The notes under the pieces are model-generated. The model had not been told where the DNA came from and made no database searches. It was given only the letters and a program-made list of their open reading frames with translations. From a phage, in assembly GCA_024686575.1 (NCBI GenBank), contig GCA_024686575.1_4863.1: 64,000 nucleotides of DNA; one strand, written 5' to 3'. Position numbers and translations under genes: made by a program. Shown here piece after piece: positions 15,221 through 34,053 of this stretch (position 1 is the stretch's first letter; each line of letters starts with the position of its first letter).

Positions 15221-15235
15221 AGATAATATCTATCT
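15221..15235 (-). promoter_or_regulatory. conserved motif 2 (plus AGATAATATCTATCT; inverted repeat AGATA-N5-TATCT)
   Basis: Exact 15-mer present four times in the window; here about 45 nt upstream of the ATG at 15181. Confidence 0.5.
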
Positions 15236-15286: not shown

Positions 15287-15985
15287 TTAGGGTATTAGGC
15301 GTTGGGCTATTTCGCGGAGTTGGTCGCGGGTTAAATCAGCCAACTTCTGGTCGCCGAAGCCCAACTTCAGACCCAGCTCGTACCCAGCTTGCGGATACGT
15401 GTTCGTGTTTGCTACTGAGAGGAGTGCATCGGCTATCTTTACCATCGTTAACTCGAGAGACGCATACGGGGCGGGGATCGGCTGATTCACGATTTGGTAA
15501 TTATAACGCACTGCGGCGTTATCGTAGTCAAACTCCATCCTTCTGCCGAGAACGTTAAACGACTCCGCAGAATAACTACCAAGTGGGTGATTGGCTTTTT
15601 CCCACAAATCTTTCCGTTCAGTAAACCCAGTCGCGAAGTTCTGACGTATGGTGTCGAATATTTGCGTTGCCTGGCTAGGGTGTATATTTTTCAGCTCATT
15701 GTAGTCGTAGTCGGCGATGGAATATAGAGTGAACACAACACCGTTTATATTTAACTGCGGATAATCCATCCGCAGACTGTCATCACCTTGTAAATGAAGT
15801 TCCCACATCCTTACCCACTGCAATATCGCGCTTACCGCATCGTGACTGAGATAAAAATTAGTAGGTTCTTCAGGATTTTCACGGAAGGGAACAGAGCATT
15901 CCGATACAAAAAAGCCGGCTGCCATAAATCCTCTGCCGTCGAACATAGGCGCAACTAATCTTGATTTTTCTAAATTGATTACCAT
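15287..15985 (-). CDS. hypothetical protein
   Basis: 232 aa; AAGGAG Shine-Dalgarno 8 nt upstream of ATG; preceded by the AGATAGATATTATCT motif and the terminator of the upstream gene. Confidence 0.7.
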   Translation of the reverse strand: MVINLEKSRLVAPMFDGRGFMAAGFFVSECSVPFRENPEEPTNFYLSHDAVSAILQWVRMWELHLQGDDSLRMDYPQLNINGVVFTLYSIADYDYNELKNIHPSQATQIFDTIRQNFATGFTERKDLWEKANHPLGSYSAESFNVLGRRMEFDYDNAAVRYNYQIVNQPIPAPYASLELTMVKIADALLSVANTNTYPQAGYELGLKLGFGDQKLADLTRDQLREIAQRLIP

Positions 15986-16025: not shown

Positions 16026-16040
16026 AGATAATATCTATCT
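16026..16040 (-). promoter_or_regulatory. conserved motif 2, copy downstream of the 766 aa gene terminator
   Basis: Exact 15-mer 41 nt upstream of the ATG at 15985, immediately after the terminator U-run. Confidence 0.5.
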
Positions 16041-16089
16041 ATAAATTTTTAGAAAAAAAGAAAAAGCTTACTCCCCGAAGGGAGTAAGC
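16041..16089 (-). terminator. rho-independent terminator after the highly expressed 766 aa gene
   Basis: Stem GCTTACTCC/GGAGTAAGC followed on minus strand by TTTTTCTTTTTTTC. Confidence 0.8.
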
Positions 16090-16120
16090 TAATCTTAGGC
16101 AACGTAATCCTTACGGATTA

Positions 16121-18421
16121 TTAGCCGCCAGCGCCTTCACCGCCAGTACCTGGCTGGGTAGCACCGCCGCCAACATCACCAGCATTACCACCGTCAGTAC
16201 CGCCGGTACCGTTGGAAGTAGTAGTGACGTTGAACGCCAGTTTCTCTTCCACGAACTTGGTGATACCTTTAATCCAGATCAGACCAGTGATCGGGCAGTG
16301 GCAGATGTGCGCGTTACGAGGCTGTACTGCCAGCTCTTTGCTGGTAGCGCCGTTACGCTGGATGTTGATGTTGGTTACCATGATCGGAGACCAGAAGTGG
16401 TTACCCCAGTTCAGAACACAGTAAGAACCATCATCAGCGGTTGGAACTTTCAGAACCCACTGCAGGCGGCGAGTCCAGCTGCCGTCAGCTTCGTTCTTCA
16501 CACGCCAGCGGTCATCGTTGGTGGTGATAACTTCGTACTCGTAGCGATCGCCCAGCAGACGCTGGTCACCCTGAACCAGCAGCAGCATTGCAGCAGTCGG
16601 TTCGTCAGTTGCGATAACAACTTTCGGCAGTGCGTTCGGGTCCGCAGTCAGCAGGCGCAGAGCCGGCATGAAGCGAGAGTCCTGGATAGCACGAGTTACC
16701 TGGTCACCGATACGCTGTACCAGACCCTGACGGGCGTTGATGAGCGCATCTTTGGTATCCAGAGACTGGATCACTTTGTCCACTTCGTAGTCGCTTTCGC
16801 TGTACCACGGAGCAACCCAGTGACGGCCCAGGCCGCGGATAGCAGGTTTGTCCCACGGAGTGATCATGGACGCAGCTGCGTTCTTAACCGCTTCGGTGTA
16901 AGACAGAGTCTGAGTGATAGCCAGCATTTCGTTACGGATGTTAACCGCAGAAACGAGGTCGTCCAGACGTTCGGTGTCGTCGTATTCAACGCCAACCGGA
17001 GATTTGGTCATGATCGGAGAACCGTACTGCAGTTTGTAGTTCTCTTGTTCCCAAATCGGGTCGAGCAGAAGGCCCTGGGTTCTCCGGTTCTCGTTGGTAC
17101 GAGTACCGTCGAAGCGCCAGCCCAGCAGCTCCAGTTTCAGGTTGTCGATGATGACTTTGCCGGTGCCGCTTTCGATATCAACAGCAGTACCAGTTGCGTC
17201 GTACAGACCTTCGATTTCCAGAGACGGTGCAGTCACGTCAACACGACCAGAGAACTGACCATTGGTGAACAGAGACATGCTGATGTTCATGGAATAACGA
17301 ATGGTGTAATCGTTCTGTGCCAGAGCGGCCAGTGCCGGGATTTCAGCACCTTTCCAGTCCAGAGACTTGGCGTTCAGGGAGAACACAGTGCGACGGAACT
17401 GCAGGACCAGCTCACGGCCATCACCTTCAGGAGGACGCTGGAAGGTAGCGAACTGCATGTCGCGTACGTTCAGTTTGATCAGCGCACCATCTTTCGCTTC
17501 TTCGGCCGGCTTACGCACAGACAGCAGCAGGCTACCCAGCGCTGCACCCGGTGCGATTTCGTCGGTTTCATCGTAACCTTCCTGCACGATACCCGGATGG
17601 GCAGACAGCTGGAACAGGTTCAGACGACGCTCAGAGAAGCTCAGGTAGTTGGTCGGATACGCCGGCACACGACCCAGCTGAACGTTTTCGTTTTCGATGA
17701 TGTCTTCGGATACGAAGAACTTCGCGTTCTCACCGGTTTCCATCACGTAAGGTACGATACGGATAGCATCGTCCTGCAGGACTTTGTGGTTAGACAGCGC
17801 GTTATGCAGCGGCTGACGGTTGTCTTCAACCACGTCTTTGGTCAGCAGGGCGTTCAGGATACCACGAGTTACAGTAGTAACTTTGGTACGAACGGTGATC
17901 CCGACGTCGTTGGTGTCCACAGTGATGGTCGGGAACAGGGTTTCTGCAAACTTGGATTGAGTTTCCAGAGCACGCACGTTCAGCGTCCAGGTCAGACCCA
18001 GGTTTTTGTCCAGGTCTTTGTTGGTGTAGTATTCGGTTGCGACCAGCGGAGTTTTACCGTAGTCAGCAGCCAGGGATGCTGCACCAGAAATAGCGATCGG
18101 CATATAGCTGGCGTATTCCGGCTTCGCGCTCTCAGCAGCAACACGGGTCATGAAGTCATCTTCGTGACCGGCAGCAGCCAGAATCATCGCAGAAGCAACC
18201 TGAGCAGCGTGGCTCATGGTTTTGCCAGGGTTTACAGCTTCGTAGTGCTGCTGAGCAGTGTCACGCAGGTTGGTGAAGCCGGCAGCATTTTTACGTACAG
18301 ATTCGCCAACGGCTACGGTTTGCCATACGTCATTAGCGGAAGAGCCTGCCTTGGCAGCAGCGACCAGAGCATTGCCCTGCTGAACCAGCTGGTCCAGACT
18401 AGCGATACGGGTATCTTTCAT
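16121..18421 (-). CDS. highly expressed structural protein, candidate major capsid protein
   Basis: 766 aa; strong preference for GGT/CTG/CGT/AAC/ACC codons unlike most neighbours; strong terminator directly downstream; Gly-rich C-terminal tail. Capsid role is a guess from size and expression. Confidence 0.75.
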   Translation of the reverse strand: MKDTRIASLDQLVQQGNALVAAAKAGSSANDVWQTVAVGESVRKNAAGFTNLRDTAQQHYEAVNPGKTMSHAAQVASAMILAAAGHEDDFMTRVAAESAKPEYASYMPIAISGAASLAADYGKTPLVATEYYTNKDLDKNLGLTWTLNVRALETQSKFAETLFPTITVDTNDVGITVRTKVTTVTRGILNALLTKDVVEDNRQPLHNALSNHKVLQDDAIRIVPYVMETGENAKFFVSEDIIENENVQLGRVPAYPTNYLSFSERRLNLFQLSAHPGIVQEGYDETDEIAPGAALGSLLLSVRKPAEEAKDGALIKLNVRDMQFATFQRPPEGDGRELVLQFRRTVFSLNAKSLDWKGAEIPALAALAQNDYTIRYSMNISMSLFTNGQFSGRVDVTAPSLEIEGLYDATGTAVDIESGTGKVIIDNLKLELLGWRFDGTRTNENRRTQGLLLDPIWEQENYKLQYGSPIMTKSPVGVEYDDTERLDDLVSAVNIRNEMLAITQTLSYTEAVKNAAASMITPWDKPAIRGLGRHWVAPWYSESDYEVDKVIQSLDTKDALINARQGLVQRIGDQVTRAIQDSRFMPALRLLTADPNALPKVVIATDEPTAAMLLLVQGDQRLLGDRYEYEVITTNDDRWRVKNEADGSWTRRLQWVLKVPTADDGSYCVLNWGNHFWSPIMVTNINIQRNGATSKELAVQPRNAHICHCPITGLIWIKGITKFVEEKLAFNVTTTSNGTGGTDGGNAGDVGGGATQPGTGGEGAGG

Positions 18422-18433
18422 TTCAAGTTTACC

Positions 18434-18958
18434 TTATTTAGATAAATGACATGCGTACAACTGCGTCAGCACTTCGTGCGCAGCAAACTGCGTCGACGTA
18501 CTGAACGTATCATCCACGACACGAGTCTTGGGACGCATATATTTAAAAAGTTCTGCGCAGAACATCTTTTTCGCAGCGTGGTCTTCACTTAAAGAAAAAC
18601 CCGGTCCGGATTTAGCTTCTGCAAAAGACGCCACAACAACATCGCCACGTTGTGAGAACACCCAACGTAAACGACCGTCGAATGATTCCCCATATAAATC
18701 AGCAAGGGTTTCATTCGTACCTTTCTCAACCAGGTTTAAGACCTGGTCATAATAAAGAGTCGGAAGTGCAGGTGGTGCCATAATCGATTTATAAATCGAA
18801 ATAGGGTCACTCACTGGCAGTATGATGGAACTAAAGCCCGACGAGCAGTCATATAACCAGTTAAAGAAGCTTGCTTGGAGTTCCTCCAACTTTTTAACGC
18901 CAGCCCCTTTATCTATGTTAGATTGAACTTCCCACGGTGGACTAAAACGAATTTGCAT
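18434..18958 (-). CDS. hypothetical protein
   Basis: Track ORF 18434-19012; internal ATG at 18958 avoids a 40-nt divergent overlap with the plus gene at 18973; stop lies 12 nt upstream of the 766 aa gene start. Confidence 0.5.
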   Translation of the reverse strand: MQIRFSPPWEVQSNIDKGAGVKKLEELQASFFNWLYDCSSGFSSIILPVSDPISIYKSIMAPPALPTLYYDQVLNLVEKGTNETLADLYGESFDGRLRWVFSQRGDVVVASFAEAKSGPGFSLSEDHAAKKMFCAELFKYMRPKTRVVDDTFSTSTQFAAHEVLTQLYACHLSK

Positions 18959-18972
18959 TTTAAGGATGCTCC

Positions 18973-20535
18973 ATGAATAGTAAAATGATGTTGATAACCG
19001 CCTTAGCCGCACTGTATACAGAATCTATGCTGACGGACCCTAGCAAGGATCATGATGTCATAAGAAAAGTTCTGATGCAGATCAAGCTTCCGGAATATGC
19101 GGAAGATGGCGAAGAGCGCTTTGCACTCATCGAGATCAAGGACATTATCACATCTATCATAGACGGCGGCATGGAATACGACCACGCGAGCGTTATGAAG
19201 CGCTTGAAGCTGGCCACCACTCAAGTACGTCCTCTATACGATACGATTACCAAATTCCTCGAAGACGATTTGCCCGAGGAAGAAGACAAACGTACCGAGC
19301 ATCTTAATCGACAACTGTCTCAATATTATTTCCAATTACGTCAATGTTTACAGAGCGTCGAACTCAAAACAAAAATGGGTCGCGCGTTCGGAGCATTGAA
19401 TGGAACTGAGACACGTGTTGATCTGAACACCGCAGTGCTCGAACTCAAAGAGGCGTTATCTACGTTCGGTGAACGCTCTCATAATAAGATTCCATCATTG
19501 GTCGGTGAGCTGGTTACAGATAATCGTGCTCCGTTTGTTAAAGTGTTCGACTCGATTAACAAGAAAGCTGCAGGTAATGGTTTGCAGACGGGCTGGAAAG
19601 CCATTAACCAAATGCTCGGTTGTAACAAAGGGATTACCGAAGAACTGTGGCTAATGCCAGCGTTACCTTTTAACTGTAAGTCTTTGTTCAGTCTCTTGCT
19701 GAGCCTATCGATTCCTATCTTCAACACGCCTGAGAAAGTAATGGCGGATGTGAAGGGCACACTGCAACCAATTATTCTTGACTTGAGTTTAGAAAACGAA
19801 CTCGACGTTAACTTAGCTTACGGCTATCAAGCTCTGTACGGTCATTTTGAAGGACAAGTTCCACAGATGACCATTTCACAGGATGCAACCGCTGAAGAGA
19901 AGTTAGCACACACAACAGCAATGTCTGATTACCTCTGTGGTAAGATTCGCGCAAACGGTTGGGACTACGTTTTCCAAAAGCACACCAACTCTGATTTTAA
20001 AGTGCACTACATCAACGACCTTATTCTCGACTTACGTCGTCGCGGTTATCATGTTGTTGGCATTCGCGCAGACTACTTAGGCACAATCAGCAAAGCAGGA
20101 CACGGCAACGGTATTGCCGGGAGTGATATCAAAGAAATTTATCGTATTGCTCGTAACATTCAAGTGGTGCGCAACCGTGGGTTCTTAATTGCCCCACACC
20201 AGATTTCCCCAGAAGGTAAGCGCTTAAAAGCGTTAGACCCGGTAGGCTTCTGTAAGAACTTACCTGGTCGTGGTCTTTACGATAGTTGTTCGAGCCTTGA
20301 TAACGAGGCCGATGGTGAAATGTATTTTAACAAGCGTGTGGTCAACGGCCATAGCTTCTTAGAAGTTCAACGCGGTAAACACCGCACCATTATCGATACT
20401 AAAGAATCTTATCACTACACAGTGATACCTTTCCAGGATGTAGGCATCCTGCCTTGGGATTGTGATAAAGAAGAAACCGTAACAGCGTCGTCTATCAACT
20501 TCTTCACCGGTGGAATGGGTGATGATTTGTTCTAA
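18973..20535 (+). CDS. hypothetical protein
   Basis: 520 aa ORF; AAGGA Shine-Dalgarno 7 nt before ATG; hairpin after stop. Confidence 0.7.
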   Translation: MNSKMMLITALAALYTESMLTDPSKDHDVIRKVLMQIKLPEYAEDGEERFALIEIKDIITSIIDGGMEYDHASVMKRLKLATTQVRPLYDTITKFLEDDLPEEEDKRTEHLNRQLSQYYFQLRQCLQSVELKTKMGRAFGALNGTETRVDLNTAVLELKEALSTFGERSHNKIPSLVGELVTDNRAPFVKVFDSINKKAAGNGLQTGWKAINQMLGCNKGITEELWLMPALPFNCKSLFSLLLSLSIPIFNTPEKVMADVKGTLQPIILDLSLENELDVNLAYGYQALYGHFEGQVPQMTISQDATAEEKLAHTTAMSDYLCGKIRANGWDYVFQKHTNSDFKVHYINDLILDLRRRGYHVVGIRADYLGTISKAGHGNGIAGSDIKEIYRIARNIQVVRNRGFLIAPHQISPEGKRLKALDPVGFCKNLPGRGLYDSCSSLDNEADGEMYFNKRVVNGHSFLEVQRGKHRTIIDTKESYHYTVIPFQDVGILPWDCDKEETVTASSINFFTGGMGDDLF

Positions 20536-31343: not shown

Positions 31344-31369
31344 CTCACCTAGGTAATATATATCTGAAA
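31344..31369 (-). promoter_or_regulatory. conserved promoter-like motif 1, second copy
   Basis: Identical 26-mer, with partial conservation of the next 15 nt; located after the paralog-1 terminator and about 50 nt upstream of the ATG at 31302. Confidence 0.55.
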
Positions 31370-31438: not shown

Positions 31439-32698
31439 TTACTTAGACTTTTCGTACGCACCGATACCGGCGCTGATGTAGCCGTTAACGCCGGCGATCA
31501 GGTTTTTCTGGCCAGTTGCAACGCAACGTTCGGTCCAGGAGATGTACTGGTTCGCAACGGTGATTGCACGACGTGCAACACGGACGTTGGAAGTCAGTTC
31601 AGCGTTGTCGTCGATCTTCACGCCGTCGATACGTTTCAGCAGCGCCTCAATAGCCCGCTCGTACGATTCTTGAGCCTGGTTATTTTTGTGGTACGCTTTC
31701 ACGTTCTCTTCGACTGCTTTACCCAGCTGGTTGAAGAACGCAACCAGAGAAGACAGCGTCTGAGCAGACGGAGTAGAAACAGATTTTTCTACGCTGCCTT
31801 CAGCATCGATAACGGTGAAGGAAGCTTCCAGGTCATCCCCGTTCACTTTCACGTCAGCTTTACCGATCTGGTTACCCAGCAGTTGAACTTCGCCCGCTTT
31901 GCCTGCAGTGGCTTTGTTAACCGCTGCTGCGAAGCCGCTGTTCAGTTTCCCGCCTTCAACTGCGCTGACCATGCTGGTTGCAGCTTTGACCACTGCATCC
32001 TGCTCGCCGTAGATGCTGCCGATAGTAGACAGAACACCTTTCAGGACGTTGATGTCGTTACCGACGAACTTACCACCGGTGGTCAGGTTCTTAATGAACC
32101 CACCGCTAACGGTGTCTTTCTTCTGCTTGCCCAGACCACGCAGAGCCGCGTCATATTTCTTAGCGCGCGCCTGAATGGATTTACCCTGGTTGCTGAACTT
32201 GAGCCAGCGATCTTTGATTTTACGGCCTTGTTCTTTCAGCCAGTCGAAGATACGCTGCAGGAACGCTTTGATGTCGTCCCACAGTGATTCACGAGCAACC
32301 TGACGGCGTTTACGTGCGCCGTAAGATTCCTGCGCAACGCTTACGCGGTGATCGAATGCCCAACGTTTACGGATAGATTCCTGCGCAACGTCCAGCTGCT
32401 CAGCAGCTTCGTCAGGCATATCTTCTTCCACTTCCATTGGCTCTTCGCCATCTTCGCCTTCGCCGTCAGCAGCGGCTTCAGCAGCATCAACTGCATCCAG
32501 CTGTGCATCAGTTTCGTCACCGTCTTCTGCCAGCACGTCTGCTTCTGCGTCCAGCTGGTCGATCGGTTTGGTGTCGTGCTCGATGTCAGCCAGAGTACCT
32601 TCCACGGACTCAGCCGGCAGCTCGATGCCATCTGGAACGACAGTGCCTGCGCCTTCGACAGATTCACGAGCGAGTTTACTTTTTACAAAGTTAGCCAT
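31439..32698 (-). CDS. abundant protein, paralog 1 of tandem pair (candidate head or scaffold-like structural protein)
   Basis: 419 aa; strongly biased codon usage; N-terminus MANFVKSKLARESVE and C-terminus GAGIGAYEKSK shared with the adjacent gene; acidic N-terminal region; terminator downstream. Confidence 0.8.
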   Translation of the reverse strand: MANFVKSKLARESVEGAGTVVPDGIELPAESVEGTLADIEHDTKPIDQLDAEADVLAEDGDETDAQLDAVDAAEAAADGEGEDGEEPMEVEEDMPDEAAEQLDVAQESIRKRWAFDHRVSVAQESYGARKRRQVARESLWDDIKAFLQRIFDWLKEQGRKIKDRWLKFSNQGKSIQARAKKYDAALRGLGKQKKDTVSGGFIKNLTTGGKFVGNDINVLKGVLSTIGSIYGEQDAVVKAATSMVSAVEGGKLNSGFAAAVNKATAGKAGEVQLLGNQIGKADVKVNGDDLEASFTVIDAEGSVEKSVSTPSAQTLSSLVAFFNQLGKAVEENVKAYHKNNQAQESYERAIEALLKRIDGVKIDDNAELTSNVRVARRAITVANQYISWTERCVATGQKNLIAGVNGYISAGIGAYEKSK

Positions 32699-32775: not shown

Positions 32776-34053
32776 TTATGCTTTAGACTTTTCGTACGCG
32801 CCAATACCAGCGCCGATGTAGCCGTTCAGGCCGCTGATAACAGTGTTACCAACGTGAGCCACAGCACGGTTCAGAGTCTGGTAGTTACGCACAGCCTGGT
32901 CAGCTGCAGTGCGTGCATTACGCAGCGCTTCCCACTCGCCTTCGTCGTTGGATTTTTTCAGAGCGGCAGCAGCTTTGGCAGCAGCCTCTTCCAGTTTCTC
33001 AACGTCAGCGTCGTAGCTGCGGAAGTCTTGCAGGACTTTCTCGAAGCCTTTACCGATAACGTCCAGGGCAGACGCAGCAGATGCCAGTGCAGAAATAGCC
33101 GGAGTAGCGATTTCTTTCGTTTCAGAAACGTCACCCGTCGACAGGAAGGCCACTGCGGTGAATTCCTGACCGCCTGCCAGAGTTTTGGTGCCGGTCTGTA
33201 CATAGGCGTTGCCTGGCAGTGCCAGAACTTTCTGACCGCCTTCGCCGTCTTCGAATTGCGGCAGTGCGCGCAGTTTCTTCGCAGCGGTACCAAACAGGGC
33301 AACGTCAACAGCGCCTTTAGCAGCGGTTGCGGTACCGTCTGAAGTTTTGGTGATCGCTACAGCAGAGTCAGCCGCCTGAGAGGACAGCTTGTTGATAGCA
33401 TCTTTCGCTTTACCGCCGGTCAGCTCTTTCGCGATAGCGATAGAGTTGGCCACATCGAATTCACCTTCGATAGACAGTTTGCTAATAAAGCCACCAGAAA
33501 TGTTTTCTTTCTTCTGTTTGCCGAGCTTACGCAGCATCTCCTGGTAAGCTTTCGCACGTTTCTGCGCGGACTTACCAACGTTGATGTACTTCAGTTTCAG
33601 CTCTTTCGCTTTCGCGATAACTGCTTTACACAGTTCAACGAAGCGTTCGAACAGATCTTTCAGGGTTTCTTTCCAGCCTTCCTGAGCTGCTTTGGTCATG
33701 CCACGGCCACGGCGATAAGATTCGCGTGCCAGTTTGGTACGATCGATAGCCCAACGCTTACGGATAGATTCCTGCGCCACCTCGGTGTGAGCGATGGCTT
33801 CTTCAGGCATCTCTTCACCGTTTTCGATTTTTTCGTCAGCAGCGTCGATAGCAGCTTCGGTACGCTCGGTATCAGCAGCCAGAGTTTCCTGGTCACCATC
33901 GAGCTGTTCCAGCTGACCGTCGATAGACGCAACTTCTGCCAGCTGAACGTCGATGTTCTCTTCTGCCGGTTCAACGTTGCTCAGACCGTCGATTACGTCG
34001 CCGGTAGCTTCAACGGACTCGCGGGCGAGTTTACTTTTTACAAAGTTTGCCAT
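32776..34053 (-). CDS. abundant protein, paralog 2 of tandem pair (candidate head or scaffold-like structural protein)
   Basis: 425 aa; same N-terminal 15 residues and C-terminal motif as paralog 1; biased codon usage; AAAGGAA Shine-Dalgarno. Confidence 0.8.
   Translation of the reverse strand: MANFVKSKLARESVEATGDVIDGLSNVEPAEENIDVQLAEVASIDGQLEQLDGDQETLAADTERTEAAIDAADEKIENGEEMPEEAIAHTEVAQESIRKRWAIDRTKLARESYRRGRGMTKAAQEGWKETLKDLFERFVELCKAVIAKAKELKLKYINVGKSAQKRAKAYQEMLRKLGKQKKENISGGFISKLSIEGEFDVANSIAIAKELTGGKAKDAINKLSSQAADSAVAITKTSDGTATAAKGAVDVALFGTAAKKLRALPQFEDGEGGQKVLALPGNAYVQTGTKTLAGGQEFTAVAFLSTGDVSETKEIATPAISALASAASALDVIGKGFEKVLQDFRSYDADVEKLEEAAAKAAAALKKSNDEGEWEALRNARTAADQAVRNYQTLNRAVAHVGNTVISGLNGYIGAGIGAYEKSKA

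Follow-up and report, generated by a model that had tools for sequence, protein, structure and literature searches.

Identity of the major capsid protein gene

The gene analysed here lies in a 64,000-nucleotide stretch of phage DNA (hereafter the window). Its best overall explanation, and almost certainly the right one, is that it encodes the major capsid protein, the orthologue of gp75, of a Seoulvirus (SPN3US/SEGD1-type) jumbo myovirus of Salmonella. An initial annotation of this DNA had guessed at a major capsid or sheath protein from size and codon usage, and left the identity of the product open. It named no strand; the order that it gave, gene, hairpins and then motif, fits the minus strand only. 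The features of the region are listed in Table 1.

Table 1. Features of the capsid gene region, in window coordinates
Feature	Position	Strand	Basis
Major capsid protein gene, SPN3US gp75 orthologue (766 aa precursor, 83.8 kDa)	16121..18421	minus	ORF, Pfam, PHROG, identity
Predicted N-terminal propeptide, residues 1-130, cut off by prohead protease after A-T-E130	18032..18421	minus	motif, masses, conservation
Predicted mature shell-forming core, residues 131-732; HK97-like with large insertion domain, ending in C-terminal-arm helix 720-730	16226..18031	minus	PDB, Foldseek, AF2
Gly/Thr-rich low-complexity tail, residues 733-766, with semi-conserved core GGNAGDVGG	16124..16225	minus	composition, pLDDT, homologues
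Small hairpin, 6-bp stem UAAUCC-GUAA-GGAUUA, directly after the stop codon	16102..16117 (approx.)	minus	fold
Intrinsic-terminator-like element: 11-bp stem, UUCG tetraloop, then UUUUCUUUUUUUCU	16051..16090	minus	fold, T-run, conservation
Motif 2, AGATAGATATTATCT: probable early (virion RNA polymerase) promoter for ORF 15287-15985	16026..16040	minus	copies, context, conservation
AGATAKATATTAYCT copies	16026, 15221, 22849, 31351, 59714, 63457	minus	
SPN3US gp74 orthologue, PHROG 8266	18434..18958	minus	stop 12 nt before capsid ATG

The open reading frame begins with ATG, and its product matches the Pfam profile HMM PF25620 (PhiKZ_MCP) with E = 7.6e-226 and 751.6 bits, against a gathering cut-off of 27, residues 72-725 aligning with positions 2-634 of the 635 in the model. 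PHROG 3231, 'major head protein', spans residues 1-755 (E = 1e-297). The protein is identical to SPN3US gp75 at 764 of 766 residues (99.7%), the two substitutions being A306T and D743N, and at the DNA level identity is 99.9% with SEGD1 and 99.4% with SPN3US, in both of which the product is annotated as the major capsid or head protein. SPN3US gp75 and the protein encoded here are practically the same protein, with the same length, ATE-130 site, tail, upstream gene, terminator and motif. The sequence matches in the PDB, 8y6v (phiKZ gp120), 8bfl (PhiKp24), 11bt and 36za (E 1e-28 to 1e-49), are all major capsid proteins; of the proteins with solved structures, those of phiKZ and PhiKp24 are the closest relatives. 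A comparison with the phiKZ major capsid protein, which the initial annotation had proposed, places both proteins in one Pfam family.

Structure prediction, proposed there as a way to tell an HK97-like from a sheath fold, pointed in the same direction: the top three Foldseek matches of an AF2 model were 8y6v and 8bfl (probability 1.00). The model, built with a 30-sequence alignment, has a mean pLDDT of 61 and a pTM of 0.42, good for secondary structure and the Foldseek family match and not for tail placement, and its TM-scores against 8y6v and 8bfl are only 0.29-0.38. Because both the confidence and the TM-scores are low, the fold evidence rests mainly on sequence homology, which places the core in the phiKZ gp120 family, HK97-like with a large insertion domain. 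In the model, helices occupy 3-97 in the propeptide, residues 482-517 form a long spine helix and residues 720-730 a C-terminal one.

The size of the protein (766 aa) and the high expression signalled by its codon bias would also suit a contractile tail sheath protein. However, no sheath family was found in Pfam (E <= 1) or PHROGs (E <= 0.01), every PDB sequence match and the top Foldseek matches are capsid proteins with no sheath structure among them, and the sheath of SPN3US is a separate gene, gp256 (PMC5694885). We regard a sheath identity as extremely improbable and dropped it, since the Pfam, PHROG and PDB matches and the identity to gp75 already refute it.

No evidence contradicts the capsid assignment, and the capsid half of the initial guess is borne out by the Pfam, PHROG and gp75 matches. 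The identity left open there had been settled in the literature: proteomics and cryo-EM established gp75 as the major capsid protein of SPN3US, where it forms the hexamers and pentamers of the T=27 shell, has the highest spectral counts and is present in about 1,560-1,615 copies (PMC5694885, PMC10052503, PMC7552025). The protein is thus already known and well studied, and the finding is ordinary apart from the Gly-rich tail; its main value is a correct annotation, which places the window in the part of a Seoulvirus jumbo phage genome that carries the head genes.

Codon bias and abundant head proteins

The effective number of codons of the capsid gene, 33.3, is the lowest of the 54 ORFs scored in the window. 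The next two, at 32776-34053 (34.4) and 31439-32698 (35.4), are the tandem paralogs gp53/gp54 (Pfam phiKZ_IP), abundant internal head (ejection) proteins, and all remaining ORFs have values of at least 40.5. The codon optimisation of the capsid gene and of these paralogs had been pointed out initially, and all five codons named there are indeed preferred in the capsid gene relative to the other genes: GGT (59% versus 46%), CTG (94% versus 36%), CGT (71% versus 55%), AAC (88% versus 71%) and ACC (56% versus 35%). We infer that this extreme bias reflects a demand exceeding that for any other virion component, since the only other similarly biased genes encode gp53 and gp54, the next most abundant head proteins. 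Ranking the ORFs by codon bias alone singled out gp75, gp53 and gp54, precisely the three head proteins of highest abundance, and the ranking is consistent with gp75 being the most abundant protein of the virion.

The capsid gene contains no TTA, CTA or TCA codons. A 715-aa ORF on the plus strand (16298-18445) is the exact antisense frame of the gene without these codons, and was rejected as a gene.

Shell, propeptide and processing

In SPN3US, the prohead protease gp245 cuts prohead-incorporated gp75 precursor after ATE-130, removing a propeptide of 130 residues (PMC5694885; PMC10052503). The protein encoded in the window carries A-T-E at residues 128-130, which fits the (S/A/G)-X-E cleavage motif, and E130 and Y131 do not vary across 30 homologues. 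Four further odd 'homologues' with scrambled sequence (P0036-P0039) were discarded as database artefacts. The computed masses of 83.8 kDa for the precursor and 70.4 kDa for the mature protein compare with the published gp75 masses of 83.9 and 70.4 kDa (PMC5694885; PMC10052503). Cleavage itself has been shown experimentally in SPN3US only, and the site here is predicted. By analogy, the precursor would enter the prohead, and gp245 would trim it after A-T-E130 to the 70.4-kDa subunit of a mature T=27 shell.

phiKZ gp120 (8y6v) and the PhiKp24 major capsid protein (8bfl/8bfp) share with the gp75-type protein the PF25620 family, the HK97-like fold with an insertion domain, T=27 shells, a long N-terminal propeptide cut at (S/A/G)-X-E and a C-terminal arm at the capsomer centre (PMC11297242; PMC10052503), but the sequence identity is only about 24% (PMC5105663). 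The pentamers of phiKZ are capped by gp244, whereas those of SPN3US have a central hole (PMC7552025). More distantly, T4 gp23 and HK97 gp5 belong to the same fold lineage, and their precursor shells likewise lose an N-terminal propeptide to a prohead protease cutting after Glu (PMC5694885); in the searches run neither gave a sequence match to the capsid protein. The propeptide of T4 gp23 is half as long as that of the gp75 type, which also differs from T4 gp23 and HK97 gp5 in its large insertion domain and in its triangulation (T=27 versus T=13, prolate, or T=7).

The Gly-rich C-terminal tail

Glycine makes up 15 of the last 34 residues (44%), versus 7.7% of the whole protein, and the tail is predicted to be disordered (AF2 pLDDT about 30). 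The initial annotation considered such a tail atypical for a capsid protein. This holds against the solved relatives, which stop at most 12 residues past the last aligned position (phiKZ gp120 ends at the twelfth) while the protein here runs 31-40 further, with about 30 extra Gly/Thr-rich residues. It does not hold against the close homologues, every one of which has a low-complexity tail. In the searched literature on gp75-type capsid proteins we found no discussion or explanation of this tail.

The tail evolves fast and is probably disordered, as the homologues and the model suggest, and would extend the C-terminal arm. Its mean identity to homologues is 0.30, versus 0.73 for the core, and three of the four differences from the nearest cluster representative sit in it. 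Across the homologues it varies in sequence and spans about 13 to 55 residues; the last 12 residues are missing in one homologue of 96% identity. The same rapid divergence, predicted disorder and variable length could mean that the tail is dispensable, being a second propeptide, removed during maturation, or the product of neutral low-complexity drift, and not a functional element exposed on the surface. The supplementary file of PMC10052503 (2023 proteomics), which can be searched as text, does not contain the C-terminal peptide (LAFNV..., GEGAGG), as a removable tail would predict; the last Lys/Arg is residue 727, so that trypsin would leave the final 39 residues in one peptide, which is difficult to detect. 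Trimming is opposed by the lack of any A-X-E motif in or near the tail and by the published mature mass of 70.4 kDa, which was computed for an uncut C-terminus and is matched by migration in gels (PMC5694885). As for drift, every homologue retains some tail, and of the closer homologues, at roughly 58% identity or more, the majority retain a G-G-N-A-G-D-V-G-like core, which points to some constraint. We consider a removable or neutral tail rather unlikely.

In phiKZ gp120 the C-terminal arm lies at the capsomer centre on the outer surface (PMC11297242). By homology, helix 720-730 would be the C-terminal arm, packing at the centre of each capsomer, and from this point the 34-residue tail, flexible and evolving rapidly, would protrude on the outer surface. 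This outward placement is probable; the protein from which it is extrapolated shares only about 24% identity (PMC5105663 Table 6). The tail is a clade-wide, rapidly diverging feature, probably on the outside at the centre of every capsomer.

Cryo-EM of SPN3US at about 30 A revealed a small protrusion at the centre of every hexamer, which the authors tentatively credited to an unidentified Hoc-like decoration protein in 260 copies (PMC7552025). In phiKZ and PhiKp24, the helices of six C-terminal arms form a six-helix bundle. We tentatively raise the possibility, by analogy, that the protrusion is wholly or partly gp75 itself, made of six C-terminal-arm helices (720-730) and six Gly-rich tails (733-766). 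The protrusion is present also in maps of protease-mutant capsids, among which a gradient band with gp75 as its only major protein may correspond to empty capsids (PMC7552025); both observations fit a protrusion built of gp75 and do not prove it. If this were true, the capsid would bear about 1,600 flexible, fast-evolving surface bristles.

Transcription of the capsid gene and the probable terminator downstream

No terminator or motif lies between the gp74 gene and the capsid gene, suggesting that the two are probably co-transcribed; the capsid gene would be read late, together with gp74. We did not locate the capsid gene's own late promoter in the window. Given the 12-nt gap to gp74, and the 14 nt that separate the start of gp74 from a divergent helicase gene, this promoter must lie within coding sequence; the short TATG of phiKZ-type late promoters does not allow prediction (PMC7598289). 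A scan of three segments for host sigma-70 promoters gave no excess over shuffled sequences (20 versus 23.9, 20 versus 20.1 and 19 versus 21.6), consistent with transcription that is independent of the host polymerase.

Downstream of the gene, a short hairpin, a UUCG-loop terminator and the motif follow one another on the minus strand in the order originally described, the short hairpin having a GUAA loop. The terminator stem, AGCUUACUCCC-UUCG-GGGAGUAAGCU (16090-16065), begins 28 nt past the stop codon, contains 6 G-C pairs, has a folding energy of -18.9 kcal/mol and is followed directly by the T-tract, with 11 T in 12 nt. The 96-nt downstream region as a whole folds at -29.8 kcal/mol, versus -16.4 +/- 3.2 in shuffles (z = -4.2). 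The claim that this is the strongest terminator of the window stands for the T-tract, which directly abuts the stem and is tied for best among the candidates, but not for the stem, which ranks fifth of about 21 in energy (the best, at 41030-41003, reaches -22.8 kcal/mol). About five terminators in the window, this one among them, are comparably strong.

With a G+C-rich stem-loop, an abutting U-run and a position at the 3' end of a gene, the element has the sequence features of an intrinsic terminator. It is conserved behind the capsid gene, its stem showing compensatory changes, in five phages, namely Seoulvirus SPAsTU, an Erskinevirus, a Machinavirus and two Derbicusvirus; in CR5 and Phobos a different hairpin, with a GAAA loop, occupies the position of the small hairpin. 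Scanned against Rfam, the whole window gave no family that reached its gathering score.

Hairpins in tandem, closed by tetraloops of high stability, are a typical means of protecting 3' ends, and the two found here (GUAA and UUCG) could mainly form an mRNA-stabilising structure or an RNA processing site, with motif 2 serving, for example, as a regulator-binding site. In addition, the RNA polymerase that transcribes phiKZ-like late genes is a non-canonical phage enzyme, and little is known of how it terminates (PMC7598289). Yet 11 T in 12 nt straight after a stem is the classic signature of intrinsic termination, and terminator-like sites outnumber those in shuffles in the three segments scanned (35 versus 19.6, 41 versus 19.8 and 27 versus 19.8), about twofold in two of them, with the strong ones at gene ends. 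We find a stabilising or processing role quite improbable. The late transcript would instead end at the UUCG-loop terminator, as its sequence and conservation suggest, and the terminator would insulate it from the next unit, which would start at the AT-rich motif 25 nt further on.

Motif 2 as a candidate early promoter

Motif 2 is a repeated 15-nt motif. AGATAKATATTAYCT occurs in six exact copies, versus 0.18 expected, all on the minus (coding) strand; five copies of motif 2 are intergenic and ahead of ORFs, and the flanks of the copies align, with an A-rich tract upstream. Jumbo phages that encode RNA polymerases have a conserved AT-rich early-promoter motif of about 10-15 nt, strand-specific and upstream of genes, which can be found bioinformatically in each; transcription from this class starts about 10 nt downstream, early and independently of protein synthesis (PMC7598289). 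Being strand-specific and mostly ahead of genes, motif 2 fits this class, which argues against a non-promoter role, and is most likely an early promoter read by the virion RNA polymerase. It resembles the early promoters of phiKZ and AR9 as a short AT-rich element in one orientation upstream of genes, but differs from them in sequence, which is specific to its own phage group. Relatives keep the motif behind the terminator of the capsid gene; in CR5 and Phobos, the two Derbicusvirus phages, it reads ATATGTTAT. The module of terminator and putative early promoter is thus kept behind the capsid gene in Seoulvirus, Erskinevirus, Machinavirus and Derbicusvirus, and offers a candidate virion RNA polymerase promoter for the group. 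In SPN3US, 625 bp that are present in the window downstream of the terminator (15296-15920), outside the capsid gene, are missing.

Identity and codon bias of the capsid gene

The initial annotation had proposed a 766-aa gene for a major capsid or sheath protein at 16121-18421. These boundaries are exactly those of one minus-strand ORF, with an ATG start and 766 codons plus stop. The proposal of a capsid protein is supported: over nearly the full model, the product matches Pfam PF25620 ('Bacteriophage PhiKZ major capsid protein gp120') at 751.6 bits (cut-off 27), and it also matches PHROG 3231 ('major head protein', E = 1e-297). At the DNA level, identity is 99.9% to phage SEGD1 and 99.4% to Salmonella phage SPN3US (genus Seoulvirus), whose annotations call the gene a major capsid or head protein. 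With 764 of 766 residues identical to SPN3US gp75, the product is an already well-characterised protein. Only four solved structures were matched by sequence, all of them jumbo-phage major capsid proteins, including phiKZ gp120 (8y6v) and PhiKp24 (8bfl). Structure prediction and comparison with phiKZ, suggested in the initial annotation, led to the same proteins: despite the modest quality of the AlphaFold2 model built from 30 homologues (mean pLDDT 61), Foldseek returned 8y6v and 8bfl as top hits with probability 1.00. The sheath alternative is wrong, since no sheath family or structure was matched in Pfam, PHROG, solved structures or Foldseek.

In SPN3US virions, gp75 is more abundant than any other protein, with ~1,560-1,615 copies in the T=27 shell (PMC5694885, PMC10052503, PMC7552025). 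Its 83.9 kDa precursor is cut by the prohead protease gp245 after A-T-E130, yielding the mature 70.4 kDa form (PMC5694885; PMC10052503 Table 2). The window protein has ATE at residues 128-130 and computed masses of 83.8 kDa (precursor) and 70.4 kDa (mature). E130 and Y131 do not vary among 30 aligned homologues with identities as low as 43%, and the cleavage site is always (A/G)-X-E↓Y.

The capsid gene and two tandem paralogs, claimed to stand out by codon bias, indeed have the three lowest effective numbers of codons among 54 non-overlapping ORFs scored within the window: 33.3 for the capsid gene, 34.4 and 35.4 for the upstream and downstream paralogs, and at least 40.5 for the remainder. The five claimed codon preferences are real, all exceeding the pooled other genes: CTG accounts for 94% of Leu codons (versus 36%), and usage is 59% versus 46% for GGT, 71% versus 55% for CGT, 88% versus 71% for AAC and 56% versus 35% for ACC. 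The fraction of codons belonging to the optimal set of highly expressed enterobacterial genes is 0.80 in the capsid gene and 0.40-0.60 in most other genes. Both paralogs have a match in Pfam PF12699 ('phiKZ-like phage internal head proteins') and are the counterparts of SPN3US gp53 and gp54, a pair of ejection proteins that are highly abundant and score just under gp75 in abundance (PMC5694885). As gp75 and gp53/gp54 combine the strongest codon bias with top abundance, codon bias in the window tracks head protein copy number.

The capsid gene contains zero TTA, CTA and TCA codons, so its antisense frame has no stops. The resulting 715-aa ORF, exactly antisense and in register, was rejected as a gene and is a shadow ORF. 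In GenBank, SEGD1 has part of this shadow ORF annotated as SEGD1_074, and its capsid gene is called from a later ATG and is therefore 688 rather than 766 aa long.

Predicted terminator and candidate early promoter

The proposed order downstream of the capsid gene (a short hairpin, a UUCG-loop stem and motif 2, a repeated 15-nt motif) was borne out, and this 96-nt stretch folds far better than its shuffles (z = -4.2). The claim that it forms the strongest terminator in the window holds for the T-tract (11/12, abutting the stem), which ties for best among the candidates, but not for the stem energy, which at -18.9 kcal/mol ranks fifth of ~21 (best, -22.8 kcal/mol at 41030-41003). Strong UUCG (TTCG) hairpins with T-runs recur at gene ends window-wide, some of them between convergent genes and usable both ways; terminator-like sites occur at ~2x the shuffle frequency in two of three scanned segments.

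Coordinates of features in and around the capsid gene and its downstream module
Feature	Position	Strand	Context
Capsid gene	16121-18421	minus	
6-bp hairpin, GUAA loop		minus	directly after capsid-gene stop codon
11-bp stem, UUCG loop	16090-16065	minus	3' of GUAA hairpin
T-run TTTTCTTTTTTTCT		minus	adjoins UUCG stem on 3' side
Motif 2, AGATAGATATTATCT	16040-16026	minus	3' of TTTTCTTTTTTTCT
232-aa ORF	15287-15985	minus	flanked by AGATAGATATTATCT copies at 16026-16040 and 15221-15235
625-bp segment	15296-15920		inside 232-aa ORF
715-aa shadow ORF	16298-18445	plus	antisense to capsid gene
Gap between starts	18959-18972		gp74-like and helicase genes
DnaB-like helicase gene	18973-20535	plus	divergent from gp74-like gene
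Downstream paralog (gp53/gp54)	31439-32698	minus	tandem
Upstream paralog (gp53/gp54)	32776-34053	minus	tandem
Predicted UUCG-loop terminator	31428-31403		hairpin and T-run 3' of downstream paralog
Promoter-like motif copy	31351-31365		sequence match 3' of downstream paralog
Further UUCG hairpins (examples)	260-237, 9998-9975, 10671-10654, 20932-20909, 31428-31403, 41030-41003, 49210-49195		gene ends

The pattern AGATAKATATTAYCT has six exact copies in the window, all on the minus strand, versus 0.18 expected by chance. Five are intergenic, ahead of ORFs; all six have a short A-rich tract on the 5' side, and four a T-rich run too. RNA-polymerase jumbo phages each have their own conserved AT-rich ~10-nt motif upstream of early operons which, where tested, is an early promoter for the virion-packaged polymerase (PMC7598289). 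From its sequence and placement, we infer that motif 2 is probably this phage's promoter of that kind.

The sequence 3' of the capsid gene was also compared across five further phages from the genera Seoulvirus, Erskinevirus, Machinavirus and Derbicusvirus: SPAsTU, Asesino, Machina, CR5 and Phobos. All five have a UUCG-loop hairpin and T-run 3' of the gene, followed by motif 2 or a variant (ATATGTTAT in CR5 and Phobos), and stem differences between phages are compensatory, for example GCTTACTCCC/GGGAGTAAGC versus CCCTACTCC/GGAGTAGGG. CR5 and Phobos have an additional first hairpin, with a GAAA loop. Because hairpin, T-run and motif are kept in all five, the module of late capsid gene, terminator and putative early promoter is conserved, which supports a function for the candidate terminator and promoter.

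The 232-aa ORF that follows has a match in PHROG 15414 (function unknown) but none in Pfam; its position between two AGATAGATATTATCT copies suggests an early gene that is dispensable. The 625-bp segment inside it is absent from SPN3US, where a remnant of only 27 codons is left, and present in ~26 other Seoulvirus records.

The capsid gene's own promoter was sought and not located, and window scans gave no enrichment of host-type promoters. Since the capsid gene starts 12 nt past the stop of gp74, the gene directly upstream, the two probably share one transcript. Only 14 bp separate the starts of the gp74-like gene (minus strand) and the divergent helicase gene, so the promoters of both units must sit inside coding sequence.

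Gly-rich C-terminal tail

Of residues 733-766, 15 are Gly, 7 are Thr and none is Lys or Arg. phiKZ gp120 and the other solved relatives end at most 12 residues past the last aligned position; the window protein continues for ~30 more. In every close homologue (at least 43% identity), the conserved segment GITKFVEEKLAFNV is followed by a tail of ~13-55 residues of low complexity, and the loosely conserved core G-G-N-A-G-D-V-G-G recurs in many of these tails. No other part of the protein evolves as fast: mean identity to the window protein is 0.30 in the tail, 0.44 in the propeptide and 0.73 in the mature core, and of the four differences that separate the window protein from the nearest cluster representative, three lie in the tail. 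AlphaFold2 predicts a helix at 720-730, then disorder.

In phiKZ gp120, the equivalent C-terminal arm (728-747) lines a pore at each hexamer centre as a six-helix bundle, and at pentamers it extends to gp244, a decoration protein on the outside (PMC11297242). Homology suggests that the tail of SPN3US-type proteins would likewise project from the outer surface at the capsomer centre. In a 30-Å map of SPN3US, each hexamer bears a small protrusion at its centre, which the authors tentatively assigned to an unidentified Hoc-like protein (PMC7552025); that gp75 C-terminal arms and tails form the protrusion instead is conceivable, though we rate it somewhat improbable. The tail might serve as a solubility or anti-aggregation bristle or as a docking site, or might reflect neutral drift.

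Irregular public records

The capsid region of Salmonella phages SPFM1, 5, 6, 7, 8, 9, 10, 12, 14, 15 and 20 (LR535901, LR535903-LR535908, LR535911-LR535913, LR535917) aligns with the window as 8-13 separate stretches of ~60 nt. The corresponding proteins of SPFM6, 8, 12 and 14 (P0036-P0039), some annotated as 'major capsid protein' and one as 'hypothetical protein', are made up of 20-residue blocks whose order is reversed. The pattern suggests that the deposited sequences were reversed line by line, an artefact rather than biology.
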